Assembly: GCA_964350645.1 (NCBI GenBank)
Contig: CAYGJY010000002.1
Coordinates: 340,936 to 404,935 of the forward strand
DNA length: 64,000 nucleotides
From: an uncultured Candidatus Saccharibacteria bacterium
GTDB lineage: Bacteria > Patescibacteriota > Minisyncoccia > Phycocordibacterales > UBA918
Direction of reading: 5' to 3'
Position numbers and translations under genes: made by a program. Position 1 is the stretch's first letter, and each line of letters opens with the position of its first letter. Below are positions 3,559-44,718 of the stretch, piece by piece. The notes beneath the pieces were generated by a model. The model made no database searches, was not told the DNA's origin, and saw only the letters and a program-made list of their open reading frames with translations.

Positions 3559-3630
3559 GGTCCCATCGTCTAGTGGTTAGGACGCCAGGTTTTCATCCTG
3601 GAAATCGGGGTTCGACTCCCCGTGGGATCA
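3559..3630 (+). tRNA. tRNA-Glu (anticodon TTC)
   Basis: Cloverleaf: acceptor GGTCCCA/TGGGATC, D-arm GTCTAGTGGTTAGGAC, anticodon stem CCAGG/CCTGG with loop TTTTCAT, T-arm GGGGTTCGACTCCCC. No encoded CCA. Confidence 0.85.
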
Positions 3631-4481: not shown

Positions 4482-4598
4482 ATGATCAAGTCCGACAAAC
4501 CAAAGAAATCAACCTCAATTCGACAGTTCATTCAAAAGAAACGAGCCAAACAAGCTCGTCAGGCAAAGCGGAATTCTTCGGGCCGCGGGAGAGGGTAG
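4482..4598 (+). CDS. candidate small, extremely basic ORF (38 aa; MIKSDKPKKSTSIRQFIQKKRAKQARQAKRNSSGRGRG)
   Basis: Below the ORF-track size cutoff. ATG to TAG in an otherwise empty 310-bp intergenic gap. Lys/Arg-rich like ribosome-associated small proteins. No clear SD sequence. Confidence 0.2.
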   Translation: MIKSDKPKKSTSIRQFIQKKRAKQARQAKRNSSGRGRG

Positions 4599-4652: not shown

Positions 4653-5621
4653 ATGTTATACTGGCTGTATATGCAAAAAAGACACATTACGTTGATCACG
4701 CTAGCTTTACTGGTAGGAGTATGTAGTGGTTTTGTACTGGCCGAGGTTAGTCAGCCTCATGGCAATCACCGCGAAGTACCTCACCAGCAGAGTCGAGATT
4801 ATGTTTCTGAAGTGGTTACCTTTACCTGTCCGAATGAAGCAGTAATAACTATCCAGTACGACGAATCAGCAGACTATGCCCGCTTAGCGCTGAGCGGAAT
4901 GTCGTATGAACTTAAACGTGAGCGAGCTGCCTCAGGAGCCCGCTATGTTGGTAAAACAGACAAGGTGTCATTTTGGGAACATCAAGGCGAAGCGATGGTT
5001 ACTTTGCCCGAGATGGAAGGAGCGATGACGTGCCAGCTACAGACCGATCAATTTGAAACTGATACTGAGATGATTACTGTTACATCACCACAAAGCGGAG
5101 CAGCTGTCGGGAATCCGATCACTCTTGCGGGTGAAGCCAGAGGGTATTGGTTTTTTGAAGGCTCAGCTCCTGTTATGGTGGTGAATTGGGATGGGTTAAT
5201 TATTGGCGAAGGGTACGTAACTGCACAGGGTGACTGGATGACTGAAGAGCTTGTACCGTTTACGGGCAGTATTGAGTATGACTTGCCAGCGGATAGCTAC
5301 AGCGCTGCCGGAACAGTTATTTTTAAGCGCGATAATCCCTCTGGCTTACCAGAACATGATGCTGCTGTAGAAATCCCAGTGGTGTTAAGTCCGGCTAGTG
5401 TAGTTGTAGGTGAGGATCCGCAGAGCGAGTCTATTGTGTGTACCGACGAAGCCAAGGCAGCTGAGATGTGTACGATGGAGTATGCGCCGGTCTGCGGCCT
5501 GGTGCAAGTGCAGTGTATTACTGCTCCGTGTGATCCCATTCCGGAAACCTTCAGTAATGGCTGCTCGGCGTGTAGTCAGGGTAATGTGATTTCATATACT
5601 GAGGGAGCGTGTGAGGTGTAG
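4653..5621 (+). CDS. secreted multidomain protein: MliC-like lysozyme-inhibitor domain + Gmad2-like Ig domain + C-terminal Kazal-like domain
   Basis: N-terminal signal peptide (…ITLITLALLVGVCSGFVLA). MliC pattern FTCPN…YARLALSGMSYEL…SGARYVGKTDKVSFWEHQGEAMVTL…MTCQ. Middle domain …GNPITLAGEARGYWFFEGSAPV…GTVIFKRDNPSG is Gmad2-like. C-terminus YAPVCG…TFSNGCSAC…C is Kazal-like. Confidence 0.6.
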   Translation: MLYWLYMQKRHITLITLALLVGVCSGFVLAEVSQPHGNHREVPHQQSRDYVSEVVTFTCPNEAVITIQYDESADYARLALSGMSYELKRERAASGARYVGKTDKVSFWEHQGEAMVTLPEMEGAMTCQLQTDQFETDTEMITVTSPQSGAAVGNPITLAGEARGYWFFEGSAPVMVVNWDGLIIGEGYVTAQGDWMTEELVPFTGSIEYDLPADSYSAAGTVIFKRDNPSGLPEHDAAVEIPVVLSPASVVVGEDPQSESIVCTDEAKAAEMCTMEYAPVCGLVQVQCITAPCDPIPETFSNGCSACSQGNVISYTEGACEV

Positions 5622-20942: not shown

Positions 20943-22250
20943 ATGTTAAACCTCCGTCCATTTCAAATCGCTATGCTCGCTCTATTTGGCGTATTGGGTG
21001 TTTTAGCGATTATGCTCTTGAGTGGTTTTTCACCTAACAATACGGCTGAACAAAAACGTTTTGGTGACAGAGTGGTTGTCTGGGGTACCTTACCAGCGCC
21101 GGCGTTCACAAAAGTACTTAGCGATTTAGGGAAGAGTGACAAAGCTTTTGATGTTATTTCATATCGTCAAGTCGACCCGCGTACGTTTAACGATACATTT
21201 GTCAATGCGATCGCTGAGGGACAGACACCCGATCTAGTCTTGTTACCCAACACAGAGCTCGTGCGTCAGCGAAGTAAGTTACTGGCGTTGTCATATGAGA
21301 CTGTCTCATTGCGTGATTATCGAGATCAGTTTGTTGATGGGGCAGAAATTTTTGCCTTAGCCGACGGACTGTATGCTCGACCGCTTGGAGTTGATCCGCT
21401 CGTGATGTACTGGAATCGAGATTTGTTATCGTCAAATGGTTTGGCTCAACCACCAACTACTTGGGAATACTTGGTAAGTACAGTAGTGCCAAGTCTTGTA
21501 GTTCGCGACAATGCGCGCAATGTGTCACAGGCTGCCGTTGCGATGGGTGAGTTTCGCAATGTACTCAATGCCAAGTCAGTGCTAGTGCTGCTCGCGATTC
21601 AGTCTGGTAGCCGCTTGGTATATGAAGAAAAAGGTCAGTATAAAATAGGCCTTAATGAATCTCTCAACAATGTCGGTACGCCGCCCTTGACCGCAGCTAC
21701 GCAGTTTTACACTACGTTTAACAATTCAAACAACCAGGTCTATACGTGGAACCGAGCTCAACCGCTTGACCGTAACGCTTTCGTTGCTGGCGATCTAGCA
21801 CTGTACTTTGGTTTCGGCAGCGAACTCGACACCATTAAGGCTCAAAATCCTAATCTCAATTTTGATGTCACATCAGTCCCACAAGGCGCCGCCGCTAGTG
21901 TAAAAAGAAGCTACGGTGTGTTTTATGGTTTTGCTATTCCAAAAGCCTCACCAAACCCACAGGGTGCGTATGCCGTAAGTACAATTTTAACGTCACCATC
22001 GGTCAGCGCTGTACTTAATAAAGAACTTGACCTGGCTCCAGTCGACCGCTCAGTGTTGGCGGCGGGCACCGCCGATGTTTTCCGTCAGACTATCTATAGT
22101 GATGCCTTAATTGCTCGAGGCTGGCTTGATCCAAATCAGAACGCGACAACCGAAGTATTCCAAAGTATGATTGAAGATATCAATGCTGGCCGCTCATCAG
22201 TGGGGGATGCTACTGGTGATGTTATTCAAAAAGTCCGCTTAGTGTTTTAA
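20943..22250 (+). CDS. extracellular solute-binding protein (ABC-transporter SBP family 1-like), membrane-anchored; orphan (no permease/ATPase adjacent)
   Basis: N-terminal TM anchor, about 400-aa periplasmic-binding-protein-like body. Called by overall pattern. Confidence 0.5.
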   Translation: MLNLRPFQIAMLALFGVLGVLAIMLLSGFSPNNTAEQKRFGDRVVVWGTLPAPAFTKVLSDLGKSDKAFDVISYRQVDPRTFNDTFVNAIAEGQTPDLVLLPNTELVRQRSKLLALSYETVSLRDYRDQFVDGAEIFALADGLYARPLGVDPLVMYWNRDLLSSNGLAQPPTTWEYLVSTVVPSLVVRDNARNVSQAAVAMGEFRNVLNAKSVLVLLAIQSGSRLVYEEKGQYKIGLNESLNNVGTPPLTAATQFYTTFNNSNNQVYTWNRAQPLDRNAFVAGDLALYFGFGSELDTIKAQNPNLNFDVTSVPQGAAASVKRSYGVFYGFAIPKASPNPQGAYAVSTILTSPSVSAVLNKELDLAPVDRSVLAAGTADVFRQTIYSDALIARGWLDPNQNATTEVFQSMIEDINAGRSSVGDATGDVIQKVRLVF

Positions 22251-35626: not shown

Positions 35627-38600
35627 ATGGTCAAATGGATTACAGCAACTGAAATTACAGCTTGGGTTAAGCGTGATAGTCGGCGTGCTCAGGAAAAATT
35701 GCCAGAATTGGTCCGCAAGCTGATACAAGCAACCGCATCATCTATAGATAGAATAAACTTTCCGTGCGACGGTAGTGTTACTTCCGGTGGTTGGGATGGG
35801 CATTTGGAAACGAAAGCAAAGACACCCTTTTTCCCAAGCGGACTATCAAAATGGGAAATGGGAGTTGGGGAGTCGTGCGGAAATAAGGCAGACAGTGATT
35901 ATAAGAGCCGGACAGCAGATCCTTTGGATGCTGTACCAGCTGATACTGTCTATGTCCAGGTTTCACCTCAGCCGTGGATAGATCGTGATAATTGGGTGAA
36001 AGCAAAAAAGACTGAGGACATATGGAAAGACGTTCGTGCAATTGGTGCCGACGACCTTGAGTTGTGGCTAGAATCAGCACCTGCAGTAGCATTATGGCTA
36101 GCAAAGGAGATGAAGAAGATCGGCTCTGCAATAAGGGACATAGAAGCTTGGTGGGAATATTGGTCAACCATGACAAATCCCTTTCTCAGTGTCGATCTGG
36201 TTATTTCTGGAAGACAAGACGAGGTCAATGAAATTCATGGGTGGTATAGGAACGGTCCTAATATTTTTGAGATGCAAGGCGATGATGCGCAAGAACCGTT
36301 CGCATTTTTATATTCAGCTCTATCAAAGTTACCGGAAGAAGAATGTCAGAGAGCTTTTTCAAGGTGTGTAGTTGTGGAAACAATTGAGCAGTTACGAGAT
36401 TGCTACGAGTCATTTGTTCATCCTCTAATTATAGCTGTCCCAGCAGAATGCATTGAAGAGGCACATATGGCAGTAAACAAAGGCCATCACGTATTTGTGA
36501 GCGCAAACGCAATGGATCGCTACCGTTATGTGCATAAACTTTCAAGAGCAAAGCGTGAACCAATGCAAGAAGCTTTAGAAAAGTTGGGATTGTCAGAGGC
36601 AGACGCCACTCGTTGTATTCGTAATACAGGGAGAAGCATTCCAGTCATTCGGCGCCAGAGGTTTAAAGCTAGTAACAAGACGCCAGAATGGGCTAAACAA
36701 GAAAATTCAAAGTTTTTACTTCCGGCGTTGTTGGCAGGAGCGTGGACTGATGGACGAGAGGGTGACAAAGAGATGATGGAGGCATTGTCTGGCATGCCTT
36801 ACAGTAAGTTTTCAAAGAGCATAAAGCCATTAACTAAGGTTGAAGACTCTCCCTTAATCAAAGTTGGGCATGTATGGATGTTAAAGTCACCTTTGGATGC
36901 TTGGTTTCTTGCTGCACAGTATTTAGATCAAGACGATTTTACCAATTTTAGACGAGGATTAAGTGCAGTATTAACTGAAACTGATCCAAAGTATGATCTT
37001 CCTTCTAGTGAACGTTGGATGGCAGGTGTAAAAGGTAAAACTCCAAAATGTTCAAGATGGGTTAGGAGGGGGTTGGTAGAGTCGTTAGTTTTGCTCTCAG
37101 TGTATGGTGACAAAATCTCTGAAGAAATTAATTCACCAGAAGATTTTGCGTATTCGGTAGTAAAGGATCTTTTAGATGCGGCTAATACATGGGAGGCATG
37201 GGCTACGCTAAAAGATGTAATGCCACTGCTTGCAGAAGCTTCACCTGATGCATTTATAGATGTTCTTGATGAGAAGATTGATTCTGAAAAAGAAATTTTT
37301 GTTGAGTTGATGAAGGATGATGAAGATCGTTTTGGCTTTGGTGATTGTCGTCACTCAGGCTTGTTATGGGCTTTGGAAAGTATTGCGTGGGACCCAGAAT
37401 ACGTCACCGCCGCGTCAATGGCGCTTTTAAAGTTGGCTCAAATTGATCCTGGTGGAAGATGGTCTAACAGACCACTTGCTAGTCTTACAGACATTTTATT
37501 ACCAGCATTGCCTCAGACTTACGCGAACGCAAAGCAGCGTGTTAAGGTTTACAAAAAGATTATTAAAGAAGACGCCGTGATTGCATGGCAGCTGGCAAGT
37601 AGTCACATGGGTGGTGGTACAGTTTCACCATCGCATTCTTTCCAATGGAGAGATATGGGTGGTGATAGAGGCGCGTTACAGCAAGTGTCGAGTGAGGATT
37701 ACACTGAGTATTTGAAGTCAATGTTTCCTATTTGGGCAGATTTAGTTTGTGTAAACAACTCTACGGTATCAAGTGGCATAGAGGATTTTATTCGGTTACC
37801 CGAAGAAATTAGAAAAAGTCTTGTAAAGAAACTTGACCAGTTAGATAAGAAATCTTTCTCAATTGAGGAAAGGAAGGTTATTTTGCAACACTTGAGACAC
37901 ACTTTAAATTGGATTCTCAATTATGATAAGGAAGAAAATTATAAAAAACACGTTCCGGCACTTAGGAGAGCCTATAATTTGTTAACGCCAGAGGATCCAT
38001 TGGATCGAATTGATTGGTTATTTCAAGACGGTTGGCCAGATTTACCAGAAGCAACAAAAAGACATGATCAACAGGAACGCCTTGAGGAACTTCGGATAGA
38101 GGCGGCGAAAATGCTGCTTGAAGAGGTGTCACTTGGTGCTATTGGAAAGTATGGCTCCGGATTGAATTATCAAGCAGCTTTTGGGTCAGCTTTTGCCAAG
38201 GCTGAAGGGAAAAAACATGATCCGGGTATTGTTAGTGAATTTTCAAAGTACGTAAAAGAAAGTCCATGGTTATTGGTTGGTTATGCGATGGGTTTGTTTG
38301 ATTCTGGTGGACAAAAGGCTGTTTTGGGTCAAATTGAGGTAGTTGAAGCAGGTAAGCTAAAATCACAAGAAAAAATCATTGCGTCACTCTTAAGAGGATT
38401 GCCTGAGCAAAGTGACACATGGTCCATTGTGGAATCTTACGGCGATCGAGTTGGTAAAGAATATTGGCTTTTGGCTTCTGGATATACAAGAAGAGATGAT
38501 CAGAAAAAACATGATGCAGAGTATGCGGTTAAAAAGCTTATTGATGTCGGTAGGCCTGGGGTCGCGGTTCGTATAGCTGGAGATTCACATGGTTCTTTAC

Positions 38601-39424
38601 CAAGTGCACTTCTAAAGCAGGTCCTGTTAGAACTTCTTAACTTAAGTGTTGAAGACAAGAATATGATTGATGGATCAATGTTGGAGTTTTATTTATCAAA
38701 TATATTTGACCAACTGTACAAAAATGACGATCTCACTTTAGAAGAGATTGGAGCTTTGGAGTGGCCATATGCACAAATTTTTGACCACCATCACAAAAGG
38801 ACTAAATCCCCAATGGCTTTGCATCAAAATCTACAAAGCAACCCAGGTTTTTTTGTAGAGCTTTTGTCGTACTTATATAAAAAGGATGATGGTTCAAATT
38901 CTAAGCCGGACAATCTATCAAAAAAACAAGCTGAAAATATTGCAAAGAACGCATACGAAGTTCTCCATACTTGGAGTCTGGTGCCGGGTGTAAGTAGTAG
39001 TGGAGAGGTAGATAAAGAGGTTCTGCGCGAATGGGTCATTACAGCTAGAAAAATGGCCAAAGAGCAAAGTTATTTAAAGGGCTGTGATCTTAAGTTGGCT
39101 GAGATTCTATCTAAAATGCCACAAGATTCAGATGGTGTGTGGCCTCATGTCGCACTGCGTGATCTGCTTGAAGAAGTAAAAAGCTCGATACTTGATAAGC
39201 ACATTCCATTTGCTATCTACAATAGCCGAGGAGTGCGTTCAAAAAGTTTGACGGATGGAGGAAGTGAAGAAAGAAGGTTGGCAGATAAATATATGGCCTG
39301 GTCGAAGGAGTTAAGTGATAACTGGCCGCGTACTTCTAGGGTTCTAAAAAACCTCTCCACTATGTTTAGTAGAGATGCAGAAAGAGAAGACATTGATTCC
39401 CAACTTCACGACTTAGAGTACTAG
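35627..39424 (+). CDS. large (1265 aa) predominantly alpha-helical protein of unknown function, cargo of integrative element
   Basis: Long uninterrupted ORF. No Walker A, HEPN, or nuclease motif recognisable by eye. Cys-containing N-terminal about 150 aa (…INFPCDGSVTSGGWDGHLE…GESCGNKADSDYKSR…). Confidence 0.7.
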   Translation: MVKWITATEITAWVKRDSRRAQEKLPELVRKLIQATASSIDRINFPCDGSVTSGGWDGHLETKAKTPFFPSGLSKWEMGVGESCGNKADSDYKSRTADPLDAVPADTVYVQVSPQPWIDRDNWVKAKKTEDIWKDVRAIGADDLELWLESAPAVALWLAKEMKKIGSAIRDIEAWWEYWSTMTNPFLSVDLVISGRQDEVNEIHGWYRNGPNIFEMQGDDAQEPFAFLYSALSKLPEEECQRAFSRCVVVETIEQLRDCYESFVHPLIIAVPAECIEEAHMAVNKGHHVFVSANAMDRYRYVHKLSRAKREPMQEALEKLGLSEADATRCIRNTGRSIPVIRRQRFKASNKTPEWAKQENSKFLLPALLAGAWTDGREGDKEMMEALSGMPYSKFSKSIKPLTKVEDSPLIKVGHVWMLKSPLDAWFLAAQYLDQDDFTNFRRGLSAVLTETDPKYDLPSSERWMAGVKGKTPKCSRWVRRGLVESLVLLSVYGDKISEEINSPEDFAYSVVKDLLDAANTWEAWATLKDVMPLLAEASPDAFIDVLDEKIDSEKEIFVELMKDDEDRFGFGDCRHSGLLWALESIAWDPEYVTAASMALLKLAQIDPGGRWSNRPLASLTDILLPALPQTYANAKQRVKVYKKIIKEDAVIAWQLASSHMGGGTVSPSHSFQWRDMGGDRGALQQVSSEDYTEYLKSMFPIWADLVCVNNSTVSSGIEDFIRLPEEIRKSLVKKLDQLDKKSFSIEERKVILQHLRHTLNWILNYDKEENYKKHVPALRRAYNLLTPEDPLDRIDWLFQDGWPDLPEATKRHDQQERLEELRIEAAKMLLEEVSLGAIGKYGSGLNYQAAFGSAFAKAEGKKHDPGIVSEFSKYVKESPWLLVGYAMGLFDSGGQKAVLGQIEVVEAGKLKSQEKIIASLLRGLPEQSDTWSIVESYGDRVGKEYWLLASGYTRRDDQKKHDAEYAVKKLIDVGRPGVAVRIAGDSHGSLPSALLKQVLLELLNLSVEDKNMIDGSMLEFYLSNIFDQLYKNDDLTLEEIGALEWPYAQIFDHHHKRTKSPMALHQNLQSNPGFFVELLSYLYKKDDGSNSKPDNLSKKQAENIAKNAYEVLHTWSLVPGVSSSGEVDKEVLREWVITARKMAKEQSYLKGCDLKLAEILSKMPQDSDGVWPHVALRDLLEEVKSSILDKHIPFAIYNSRGVRSKSLTDGGSEERRLADKYMAWSKELSDNWPRTSRVLKNLSTMFSRDAEREDIDSQLHDLEY

Positions 39425-42942: not shown

Positions 42943-44718
42943 ATGTCGTTTCAAGATAGATACAAAGCAAATAAATATTTTCTCTACATACGAAGGTCCC
43001 AAGATGCTGAGGATCGTCAGATGGCGTCACTTGAGGATCAAGAATCTGAAATGCTTTCAATAGCAGATCGTCTTGGACTTGATATTGTCGATACAATTAA
43101 GGAGTCACAATCAGCAAAGAAGCCAGGACGACCGAAATTTAATGAGATGCTTGCTCGCATCCATTCCGGTGAAGCAGATGGAATTCTGTGCTGGAAGATT
43201 AATCGTCTGGCTCGTAATCCAGTTGATGGTGGACAAATCTCTTGGTTATTACAGCAGGAGATTATTAAGCATATACAGACGTATTCGAGAGACTACCAGC
43301 CGACTGACAATGTGATTATGATGGCGGTTGAGCTTGGAATGGCTAATCAGTTTGTTAATGACCTCAGTGTTGATGTAAAGCGTGGAATGAGAAATAAAGC
43401 AGAGCGTGGTTGGAATCCTCAAAGACTATTGCCATCAGGTTACAAACACAATAAGGGATATGAAAAAGGTGAAGCTGAGATACTGAGTACCGATAAGTTG
43501 CCGATAGTTAAAAAACTTTTTACCGATATGCTGACTGGATCGTATTCACCAGCAGATATTCAAAGACTTAGTCAGACATACGGTTTAATGAATAAGTTTG
43601 GAAGACCACTAGCACTTCAAACGATACATAATATGCTCAGTAGTGAGTTTTACTGTGGTTACTACTACTGGAAGGGTCCAGATGGCTCTGAAGTGCGCTA
43701 TAAAGGCAAGCATGAGGTTATTTTGAGTGAAGATGAGTTCAATCAAGTCCAACGCCTTCTAGGTAAAAAAGGAAGGCCTACAAGAGTCAATAAATTAGAC
43801 TTTGCTTTTAGAGGTCCTTTGAACTGCGGAGAGTGTGGATATGCAGTAACAGCCGAAGATAAGGTTAGGACTTTGTGTACTGGATGTCGTTGTAAATTCT
43901 CCTGCAAGACCCAAACAGCATGTCCTAAGTGTGGTTTAGATATTTCAGAAATGAAGAATCCAAAGATTTATCATAATGTGTATTATCACTGTACGAAAAA
44001 GCGTAAAGACATAAAGTGTACTCAGAGTGTTATTGATGAAAAAGTACTGAAGAAACAAGTGTACTCAAAGTTGGGTGAAGTTGAGATTGATAAAGATTTC
44101 TATAATTGGGCTGTTGCAGCTTTAAAACATACTCATGGTGATGAGATGGAGACTCAAAGTGACATTTTGAAACATCTCAATGATCGCTCTGTTTCTATTC
44201 AGGCACGTATTGATAAATTGGTACTAATGAGGGCTGATGGTGAGATTTCTAGTGACCAGCTTGCTCGAATGACTGCTGAAGCAGAAAAGGATCTTAAGGA
44301 GGTTGAGAAGGAGCAGAAGCGTTTGCATGCAAGAATGACGGAGTGGTCCAGTACCGCAGATAAATACCTCACTTTTGCAGATAGGGTACGAAGAAAGTTC
44401 AATAAAGCTTCAAATGAGGAAAAGCGAGAGATGCTAGTGATGTTAGGTTCGACACTCGAAATTACTGATAAAAAATTCAATGTTATAGTCGCGAATGAGC
44501 TTTTAGGTTTCAAAAATGTATCTGTGAAGATAGGCAAGAGATTAGGTAGGTTCGACAATCAAAAAGCCCTTGATATACAAGGACTTTCTGACCAAAAACG
44601 CATGGTTTTTGACGAACTGTGCGCCGGGTTGGATTCGAACCAACGTAGGATAAATCCGACAGGTTTACAGCCTGTTGCAATTGACCACTCTGCCACCGAC
44701 GCGTCTATAAAATTGTGA
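42943..44718 (+). CDS. large serine recombinase (resolvase-domain integrase with recombinase domain, zinc ribbon and coiled-coil)
   Basis: N-terminal resolvase catalytic domain (YIRRSQDAED…GILCWKINRLARN). Cys-rich zinc beta-ribbon (CGECGY…CTGCRCKFSC…CPKCG). C-terminal coiled-coil. The last about 33 codons are antisense to tRNA-Tyr. Confidence 0.8.
   Translation: MSFQDRYKANKYFLYIRRSQDAEDRQMASLEDQESEMLSIADRLGLDIVDTIKESQSAKKPGRPKFNEMLARIHSGEADGILCWKINRLARNPVDGGQISWLLQQEIIKHIQTYSRDYQPTDNVIMMAVELGMANQFVNDLSVDVKRGMRNKAERGWNPQRLLPSGYKHNKGYEKGEAEILSTDKLPIVKKLFTDMLTGSYSPADIQRLSQTYGLMNKFGRPLALQTIHNMLSSEFYCGYYYWKGPDGSEVRYKGKHEVILSEDEFNQVQRLLGKKGRPTRVNKLDFAFRGPLNCGECGYAVTAEDKVRTLCTGCRCKFSCKTQTACPKCGLDISEMKNPKIYHNVYYHCTKKRKDIKCTQSVIDEKVLKKQVYSKLGEVEIDKDFYNWAVAALKHTHGDEMETQSDILKHLNDRSVSIQARIDKLVLMRADGEISSDQLARMTAEAEKDLKEVEKEQKRLHARMTEWSSTADKYLTFADRVRRKFNKASNEEKREMLVMLGSTLEITDKKFNVIVANELLGFKNVSVKIGKRLGRFDNQKALDIQGLSDQKRMVFDELCAGLDSNQRRINPTGLQPVAIDHSATDASIKL
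44620..44702 (-). tRNA. tRNA-Tyr (anticodon GTA), type II
   Basis: Minus-strand GCGTCGG-TG-GCAGAGTGGTCAATTGC-A-ACAGG-CTGTAAA-CCTGT-[CGGATTTATCCTACG]-GTTGGTTCGAATCCAAC-CCGGCGC-A. Entirely inside the 3' end of the recombinase ORF on the opposite strand. Confidence 0.8.

Follow-up and report, generated by a model that had tools for sequence, protein, structure and literature searches.

The 64-kb window analyzed here, i.e., the whole stretch of 64,000 nucleotides from contig CAYGJY010000002.1 of an uncultured Candidatus Saccharibacteria bacterium, contains an open reading frame (ORF; 4653..5621, + strand, 322 amino acids) for a protein in which an MliC-like barrel, an immunoglobulin (Ig)-like Gmad2 domain, and a C-terminal Kazal-type module follow each other. 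Sequence profiles identify the C-terminal module as a true Kazal-family domain, and with moderate confidence we consider the product an extracytoplasmic modular protein in which this domain would act as a standard-mechanism serine-protease inhibitor next to a diverged MliC barrel. The assignment of the three modules MliC, Gmad2, and Kazal, made in a first-pass annotation from the sequence alone, proved correct in Pfam, profile, and hhalign searches. Residue numbers refer throughout to the 322-amino-acid ORF, and the features of the Kazal module are the following:

5436..5618 (+), Kazal-type module, residues 262-322, with C1 to C6 at Cys263, 273, 281, 304, 307, and 320 and an extra pair at 288/293 (profile searches, hhalign)
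5469..5486 (+), predicted reactive-site loop, P3-P3' being C-T-M-E-Y-A, with P1 at Met275 (5475-5477) (alignment to OMTKY3, AEI, and SPI-2)
5508..5543 (+), 12-residue hairpin insertion V-Q-C-I-T-A-P-C-D-P-I-P with Cys288 and Cys293 (hhalign gap, Cys co-occurrence)

On the whole protein, Pfam reports MliC and Gmad2 above their cut-offs and Kazal_1 (PF00050) below it, the latter with 13.5 bits over residues 263-282 only, at a gathering threshold (GA) of 21. The isolated module obtains 19.3 bits over model positions 1-18 only, deletion of 8 insertion residues in silico raises the score of the query to 22.1 bits, and a natural short-hairpin homolog without the insertion (P0125) reaches 28 bits. 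The module thus misses the Pfam cut-off because of its 12-residue hairpin insertion with the extra Cys pair. As a single-sequence phmmer search of the Protein Data Bank (PDB) was too insensitive, returning YdhA alone (E = 1.1), profiles had to be employed. The 48 best PDB matches of a profile built from seven modules are all Kazal inhibitors, with SPI-2 (2m5x, E = 2.8e-5), the Anemonia elastase inhibitor (AEI, 1e-4), and ovomucoid third domains (about 1e-3) at the top, and the weaker rows, with E above 2, are viral fusion glycoproteins. The HMMER alignment to the PDB Kazals has a single gap of 12 residues, located in the hairpin, and all seven modules of the alignment match Pfam Kazal_1 (best E 2.1e-6). 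Comparison of insertion-type with canonical prokaryotic Kazal modules by hhalign gives 99.1% probability and E = 5.6e-19, with 52% identity across the 48 columns that run from C1 through C6 and one 12-residue gap. Proteins with strong canonical matches, likewise retrieved by the exhaustive profile search, score 183 (P0143), 122 (P0147), and 101 bits (P0150) on Kazal_1, and both module types coexist in single chains, P0150 consisting of three canonical and one insertion-type module. An AlphaFold2 model of the isolated module (predicted local distance difference test, pLDDT, 85.9) displays the β-β-α-β order of Kazal domains. The motifs PVCG and TFSNGCSAC, cited as Kazal hallmarks in the first-pass annotation, are therefore indeed present in a Kazal domain, as identified by the PDB profile search, the short-hairpin homolog, and hhalign. 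The Cys spacing, on which that assignment was said to depend, departs from the canonical pattern but is compatible with a Kazal fold, the deviation being confined to one insertion in the hairpin, which brings an additional Cys pair.

With OMTKY3 (1cho/1ppf; MEROPS I1), the query shares the six-Cys framework, the C2-x7-C3 loop, the C4-x2-C5 spacing, the Asn preceding C4, and, in the module model, the β-β-α-β order. In contrast to OMTKY3, it possesses the 12-residue hairpin insertion and the extra Cys pair, has Phe in place of the hairpin Tyr, spans 12 instead of 17 residues between C5 and C6, and is a prokaryotic module fused to MliC and Gmad2 that, when intact, falls under the Pfam cut-off. 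The best PDB profile matches are non-classical or reduced Kazals, e.g., Galleria SPI-2 (2m5x) and AEI (1y1b/1y1c), and relatives of the query without both C1 and C5 are SPI-2-like. Whereas four disulfides are predicted for the query, SPI-2, AEI, TFP4 (2n17), and Phytophthora EPI1, all of them eukaryotic, have two or three, and the stapled hairpin extension is found in none of these four. The typical Kazal pairing is 1-5/2-4/3-6 and the family tolerates a varying number of disulfides, as in the two-disulfide EPI1 domain of Phytophthora (PMC1236909).

Modules from the 145 best new representative proteins fall into two hairpin types, long with exactly two Cys residues (183 modules) and short without Cys (68); an odd number occurs in 2. 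By a crude window rule, 171 modules have both C1 and C5 and 70 have neither, C5 only was met once, and 44 counts fell on an upstream Cys unaccompanied by C5. Since this co-variation matches the 1-5/2-4/3-6 pattern plus one bond, disulfides 263-307, 273-304, and 281-320 and an extra 288-293 staple are predicted for the query.

The putative reactive loop of the query reads C273-T-M-E-Y-A-P-V-C281-G, the equivalent segments being C-T-M-Q-Y-D-P-V-C-G in AEI and C-T-L-E-Y-R-P-L-C-G in OMTKY3. Loop hallmarks of inhibitors are all found, i.e., Cys at P3, Thr at P2, Glu at P1', Tyr at P2', and Pro at P4', together with the supporting Asn302. Over 357 loops, Thr is conserved at P2 in 212, Tyr at P2' in 266, Pro at P4' in 317, and Val at P5' in 324, and the entropy amounts to 1.63 bits at P2' and 0.83 bits at P4'. 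It is highest at P3' (3.57 bits) and at P1 (3.47 bits), where E, M, K, A, L, and R are encountered. A constant scaffold that bears a hypervariable specificity residue marks canonical inhibitors, as established in the work of Laskowski. Judged by these features of its sequence, the protein is a probable surface-exposed serine-protease inhibitor.

The Kazal inhibitor TFP4, which has a P1 Met in common with the query, inhibits chymotrypsin with a Ki of 91 nM and also inhibits elastase, but not trypsin (PMC4433142). By analogy, Met at P1 makes proteases of the chymotrypsin, elastase, or subtilisin type the predicted targets of the query, in preference to those of the trypsin type. The TFP4 structure (2n17) bears the title 'Lysozyme-Protease Inhibitor Protein' in the PDB; it was rejected as a precedent for a dual function, as its paper contains protease inhibition only and nothing on lysozyme. 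In a crude motif scan, no S8 or S1 protease motifs were encountered within 3 kb of 80 related loci or in the 64-kb window, and for this reason the targets of the Kazal module are probably exogenous.

In the mechanism that we favor, the protein would be exported and either remain anchored through its N-terminal helix or be released after cleavage. Its Kazal module would act as a standard-mechanism (Laskowski) inhibitor, the rigid loop from C273 to C281, braced by the predicted C2-C4 and C3-C6 disulfides and by Asn302, docking to a serine protease at its active site in the manner of a substrate. Chymotrypsin-, elastase-, or subtilisin-like proteases of neighboring or host microbes would be the targets. 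The 12-residue hairpin stapled by Cys288-Cys293 may be a lineage-typical elaboration that lies apart from the reactive loop. As the family's conserved core, Gmad2 might serve as scaffold or as envelope- or carbohydrate-binding module, and the MliC-like barrel would bind a ligand other than c-type lysozyme, perhaps another muramidase, or bind lysozyme only weakly. We infer the inhibitory activity, the target class, the localization, and the roles of the Gmad2 and MliC-like modules in this scheme.

A search of a word-indexed protein database with the module alone yielded 5 candidates, so that an exhaustive search of representative proteins and a GTDB scan were needed. Among 1.84 billion representatives, the Kazal-like module is found in 3,434 clusters at E<=1e-3 and in 1,318 at E<=1e-10, with up to 10 copies per protein, and in GTDB species genomes one narrow loop pattern led to at least 299 loci that were confirmed. 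The results on taxonomy, module fusions, and linked proteases refer to the best 80 of these at least 299 loci. They belong mostly to Gracilibacteria, Peribacteria, Absconditabacteria/SR1, Saccharibacteria, Kaiserbacteria, and Nomurabacteria, and in addition to DPANN archaea, some Methanosarcinales, and a few Gammaproteobacteria. Named relatives of the whole protein come from Nomurabacteria, Kaiserbacteria, Paceibacterota, and Zambryskibacteria. At the GTDB loci, numerous other small extracellular modules are joined to the Kazal-like module.

In an architecture scan with custom hidden Markov models, which covered 206 sequences consisting of homologous proteins and of ORFs at the 80 GTDB loci, Gmad2 alone was detected in 93 and Kazal only in 73, whereas combinations are scarcer, with MliC-Gmad2 in 13, Gmad2-Kazal in 10, and MliC-Gmad2-Kazal in 3. 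The triple fusions are the query, its 94% identical ortholog P0001, and P0009, which is 49% identical and whose Kazal part breaks off after C3 as if frameshifted. In a possible further triple, P0021 (42% identical), the sequence stops at C1, close to where its 2,148-bp contig ends. Occurring also in P0001 and P0009, the triple fusion, though rare, goes back further than a single strain, and the impression that such an inhibitor combination is uncommon is borne out by its presence in 3 of the 206 sequences.

The AlphaFold2 model of the protein, obtained from 101 sequences, has a mean pLDDT of 88 and a predicted template modeling score (pTM) of 0.52. It consists of an N-terminal helix, two all-β domains (pLDDT 92-97), and the C-terminal β-β-α-β module (77-91), which are connected by linkers of low confidence. 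These linkers together with the pTM of 0.52 indicate that the domains behave as beads on a string. In a Foldseek search with the full model, the PDB matches were informative for the MliC part alone. The central domain and the N-terminal segment map as follows:

5070..5387 (+), Gmad2 Ig-like β-sandwich, residues 140-245 (Pfam PF10648, family conservation)
4671..4742 (+), basic stretch followed by a hydrophobic helix, residues 7-30 (hydropathy, AlphaFold2 model, homolog N-termini)

The Gmad2-like Ig domain of the first-pass annotation is confirmed by a Pfam match above the cut-off (PF10648, residues 141-214, E = 6e-10, 39.7 bits at a GA of 25.7) and by an all-β model (pLDDT 93-97). Foldseek returned generic Ig-like or carbohydrate-binding-module-like PDB matches alone, and a Gmad2 clade profile matched none of the PDB sequences, i.e., no solved structure is detectable by sequence. 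Gmad2 is the most conserved part of the protein family, with 28 invariant columns among 11 diverse members and the motifs WFFE, NWDG, WMTE, and NPSGLPEHD, and most of the 120 best homologs share Gmad2 alone. Gmad2 was first tied to peptidoglycan-associated proteins and LysM fusions (PMC2732212). Like the Gmad2 of GerM-associated proteins, the domain of the query has the Pfam match and an Ig- or fibronectin-type-III-like β-sandwich, as predicted by Rigden and Galperin (PMC2732212). Unlike them, it has no GERMN partner and belongs to a highly conserved clade in the candidate phyla radiation (CPR), in which it is fused to variable N- and C-terminal modules.

Residues 12-30 are hydrophobic (Kyte-Doolittle values up to 2.0), AlphaFold2 places a helix at residues 2-26 of the 316-amino-acid form of the protein, and homologs possess similar N-terminal helices. 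The signal peptide proposed earlier is thus compatible with these data in so far as a hydrophobic N-terminal helix is present, yet the segment may be either a signal peptide, with a possible cleavage site V-L-A|E, or a signal/membrane anchor. A lipoprotein reading of L-V-G-V-C24 was rejected; as Val, and not G, A, or S, occupies position -1 relative to Cys24, there is no canonical lipobox.

A modular organization of this kind would also be expected of a non-inhibitory surface adhesin or scaffold of an episymbiont, whose Kazal-like module and barrel bind the surface of the host cell in the manner of follistatin- or agrin-type domains, and we regard this explanation as rather unlikely. It would account for the promiscuous shuffling of the Kazal-like module in CPR and DPANN proteins, including tandem arrays of up to 10, for a conserved core formed by Gmad2, a domain without assigned function, and for the lack of a cognate protease gene nearby in the crude motif scan, and the pTM of 0.52 in combination with high pLDDT suggests beads on a string. 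However, the loop retains the hallmarks of a reactive site, variability within it is highest at P1 and P3' while the scaffold is conserved, as in canonical inhibitors, and the P1 residues M, K, R, L, A, and E are typical specificity residues. Tandem arrays are also typical of true Kazal inhibitors, for example of ovomucoid.

The remaining module, which precedes Gmad2 in the protein and was expected to inhibit lysozyme, comprises the following features:

4800..5045 (+), MliC/PliC-like eight-stranded barrel, residues 50-131, with the pair Cys59-Cys127 (Pfam PF09864, clade profile, Foldseek, pLDDT)
4932..4934 (+), Ser94, conserved equivalent of PaMliC Ser89 (clade alignment)
4980..4982 (+), His110, at the position of PaMliC Lys103 (clade alignment)

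It belongs to the MliC fold family. Pfam MliC (PF09864) matches residues 57-122 with E = 6.7e-15 and 55.3 bits at a GA of 22, the pLDDT of this part is 92-97, and a profile from 15 clade members finds YdhA (2f09, E = 1.4e-6), PaMliC (3f6z, 3.3e-5), and Brucella PliC (0.039) in the PDB. Foldseek aligns the barrel with PliC/MliC structures (4mir, 3oe3, and 2f09) with probability 1.0 and target-normalized TM scores of 0.59-0.71, and Cys59 and Cys127 are kept across the clade. By contrast, the NCBIfam equivalog for C-type lysozyme inhibitors (NF008475) gives 15.4 bits at a cut-off of 168. A weak NCBIfam match to the metzincin inhibitor BamI (E = 0.054) was dropped, because its paper links nothing to MliC.

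Ser89 and Lys103 of PaMliC enter lysozyme's active site and have been reported as necessary for inhibition, and the S83A and K103A variants of Neisseria Ng_1063 lose protection (PMC6033460). Counting along the printed PaMliC sequence, S89 falls on the Ser of A-S-G and K103 on the Lys of T-K-G. The segment S-A-S-G-A-[RK]-Y of the inhibitors aligns with A-A-S94-G-A-R-Y of the query, and W-[ST]-K-G-[DE]-E-A aligns without gaps with W-E-H110-Q-G-E-A. At the K103-equivalent position, the 15 clade members have H (11), Y, Q, E, or R, and Lys in none. Of the pattern initially read as MliC-like, the fold, the Cys pair, and S-G-x-R-Y hold, but the 'KG' motif does not, the sequence being F-W-E-H-Q-G-E. 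With His in place of the K103-equivalent Lys, inhibition of c-type lysozyme by this module is doubtful, and the conservation of W-E-H-Q-G-E throughout the clade suggests a different conserved binding surface on the barrel. In summary, the query shares with the MliC/PliC inhibitors the Pfam family, the barrel fold, the disulfide pair, and the S-G-A-[RK]-Y loop with the S89-equivalent Ser, whereas it differs from them in having W-E-H-Q-G instead of W-[ST]-K-G, in a preceding loop that is 2 residues longer, and in that its barrel is an internal module of a larger CPR protein rather than a lipoprotein or free periplasmic protein.

It is in this light that the function first proposed has to be seen, namely a secreted dual inhibitor that blocks c-type lysozyme as well as serine proteases and shields the cell against host lytic enzymes, here taken to be those of an animal. 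Both inhibitor-family domains are present, the MliC disulfide pair and the S89-equivalent Ser are conserved, the barrel fold matches solved lysozyme inhibitors, and the clade-conserved W-E-H-Q-G-E loop hints at a functional surface. Nevertheless, we consider this function quite unlikely. The K103-equivalent residue is His in the query and, throughout the 15 clade members, one of H, Y, Q, E, or R but in no case Lys, whereas K103A abolishes protection by Ng_1063 and PaMliC is reported to need its K103 (PMC6033460). Close relatives have MliC or Kazal, usually not both, and consequently the two activities seem not to be an obligate pair. The relatives are CPR bacteria and, in data that do not include the sample types, nothing ties the organism to an animal host, which argues against animal lytic enzymes as the challenge; 'host' enzymes would more likely come from other microbes. 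What is supported of the dual claim is the Kazal half with its inhibitor hallmarks, and the lysozyme half is made doubtful by the replacement of K103.

Substitutions were counted against the ortholog in contig L001. The whole gene has 39.5 synonymous and 19.5 non-synonymous changes (dN/dS, i.e., the ratio of non-synonymous to synonymous substitution rates, 0.13), the Kazal segment 5 and 0 (dN/dS 0), the Gmad2 segment 26.5 and 10.5 (0.09), and the MliC segment 4 and 7 (about 0.5, from the small number of 11 changes). The gene is under purifying selection. Positive selection was rejected, as dN/dS is 0.13 overall and MliC alone is relaxed, with no arms-race signal at this depth. Between positions 3575 and 6700 of the window, the comparison with L001 is a mosaic, with 2 differences in about 1.1 kb 5' of the gene, about 60 in the 951-nucleotide gene, and 27 in the VIT1 gene. 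A nearly identical 1.1 kb upstream next to about 60 differences in the gene points to a recombination boundary rather than to positive selection, and suggests a recombination breakpoint near the gene start.

Several observations weigh against a Kazal-based inhibitor with a functional MliC-like partner. Foldseek with the model of the isolated, disulfide-rich 68-residue module found nothing significant in the PDB (best E = 2.3), so that the claim to a Kazal fold rests on sequence profiles and the order of secondary structure elements, although for so small a domain with an insertion this search says little either way. A PROSITE PS00282-type regular expression matches OMTKY3 and a canonical prokaryotic domain but fails on the query, because C3 and the hairpin aromatic are separated by 18 residues instead of 6 and the hairpin Tyr is replaced by Phe. 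The segment C-T-M-E-Y-A-P-V-C is unusually well kept across distant taxa in the GTDB matches, which is partly an ascertainment effect since the scan pattern demanded that loop. Many eukaryotic Kazal-like domains of the follistatin type are non-inhibitory, and no biochemical data were found for any member of the prokaryotic Kazal branch. Formation of disulfides outside the cell is assumed for the source organism. As to the barrel, lysozyme inhibition requires two residues, of which one is absent, and the MliC part is under the most relaxed constraint within the gene.

The gene itself maps as follows:

4671..5621 (+), gene as called in NCBI and Logan, 316 amino acids plus stop (orthologs, dN/dS)

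That the ORF is a real gene follows from the existence of orthologs and from the dN/dS of 0.13 in comparison with the 94% identical ortholog. The exact 316-residue product starting with the ATG at 4671 is recorded in NCBI and Logan, the 322-residue form is not on record, and the ortholog P0001 starts at the same Met, so that Met7 is the likely start. No sigma-70-like promoter was detected on the coding strand 5' of the start codon and no terminator-like site was seen 3' of the gene. The 313-nucleotide gap 5' of the gene contains a very basic ORF of 38 amino acids, 4482..4598 (+), MIKSDKPKKSTSIRQFIQKKRAKQARQAKRNSSGRGRG, and an opposite-strand terminator-like hairpin at 4560-4540. The gap has the same sequence in L001 apart from one indel, and the region 4482..4598 may encode a small protein or have a conserved regulatory role.

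The neighbors are housekeeping genes, with a peptidase S51 gene 5' and genes for VIT1, NUDIX, thioredoxin reductase, and FtsZ/FtsA 3' of the gene, with synteny preserved in the orthologous contig L001. For the upstream peptidase S51, a cytoplasmic location is expected, and it is not a known target of Kazal inhibitors. Restraint of the own secreted proteases or autolysins at the cell surface seems very unlikely, as the crude motif scan revealed no serine protease gene within 3 kb of the 80 related loci or in the window and the family-wide hypervariability of P1 fits diverse external targets better than one endogenous enzyme, even if Callewaert et al. raise a possible control of endogenous murein hydrolases by MliC (PMC2267010), Gmad2 was originally tied to peptidoglycan-associated proteins and LysM fusions (PMC2732212), and the housekeeping neighborhood is conserved in the ortholog.

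Elsewhere in the window, 42943..44718 (+) encodes a large serine recombinase of 591 amino acids, XisF/Ccr-like by NCBIfam, whose 3' end overlaps a tRNA gene on the other strand, 44620..44702 (-); this overlap may mark an integrated mobile element. The ORFs 35627..39424 (+; 1,265 amino acids) and 20943..22250 (+; 435 amino acids) have no NCBIfam match at E<=1e-10. GyrA of the window shares 84-89% identity with many metagenomic proteins and with entries labeled Pacebacteria or Patescibacteria group. Together with the named relatives of the whole protein, these matches mark the source organism as a bacterium of the CPR/Patescibacteria type. GyrA sequences from metagenome-assembled genomes labeled Acidimicrobiales, Patiriisocius, and Azotimanducaceae (P0288, P0302, and P0338) are 85-87% identical to it, and the bins of Acidimicrobiales and Patiriisocius (L007 and L008) also hold CPR-type Kazal proteins; these contigs are probably mis-binned CPR contigs.

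Other Cys-rich modules accompany the Kazal-like module in CPR and DPANN proteins, with the patterns CTMDAKxCPDGSxVGRxGPxCEFAxCP, CxSYFDGCNxC...CTxMxC, and IGGxxDxHGCxxxAGYxW, and such shuffled modules were seen at loci L005, L006, L008, L010, L011, L013-L024, L032, L041, and L062. In Gracilibacteria, the Kazal-like module occurs together with a C-terminal domain bearing an MMYCEG...EN motif. These partner modules constitute an unexplored extracellular repertoire. The protein P0143 has a lipoprotein-like N-terminal signal, one Kunitz/BPTI domain, and then six canonical Kazal domains and would, if bacterial, combine two inhibitor families in an unusual array.

Kazal inhibitors are textbook eukaryotic proteins. 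The searchable literature contains no paper combining 'Kazal' with CPR or Patescibacteria terms, and in a 2026 survey Kazal folds of DPANN appear only as singletons that were not verified (PMC13607799). Each of the three domain families is already known, and what is new is their rare three-way fusion. Equally new are the assignment of the module, by its sequence profile, to a very large prokaryotic Kazal branch with a stapled hairpin, and the finding from the clade alignment that the MliC label here conceals the loss of the key Lys. Pfam, NCBIfam, and the source annotations mostly miss this branch, most of its members falling under the Pfam cut-off because of one insertion. The proposed logic of an extracytoplasmic inhibitor directed against foreign serine proteases is the same as for ecotin and for EPI1 and EPI10 of Phytophthora (PMC9904509), although ecotin has an unrelated fold and the EPI proteins are eukaryotic, from an oomycete.

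A bolder extension, which we put forward tentatively and consider rather improbable, is that active stapled-hairpin Kazals have undergone a large prokaryotic radiation in CPR and DPANN episymbionts, where they would be displayed as protease shield or weapon in cell-cell parasitism. In the present protein, the inhibitor would then be two-headed, with a re-targeted MliC-like barrel (His for Lys) blocking a non-c-type microbial muramidase. Quite apart from this extension, a Pfam label of 'lysozyme inhibitor' can mask the loss of a key residue, and the triple fusion offers a convenient single construct for testing both putative activities. If active, the stapled-hairpin Kazal modules would provide a new extra-stabilized scaffold for protein engineering, would represent a major overlooked class of extracellular protease inhibitors in episymbiotic microbes, and would give a biochemical handle on how episymbionts survive on, or attack, their hosts.

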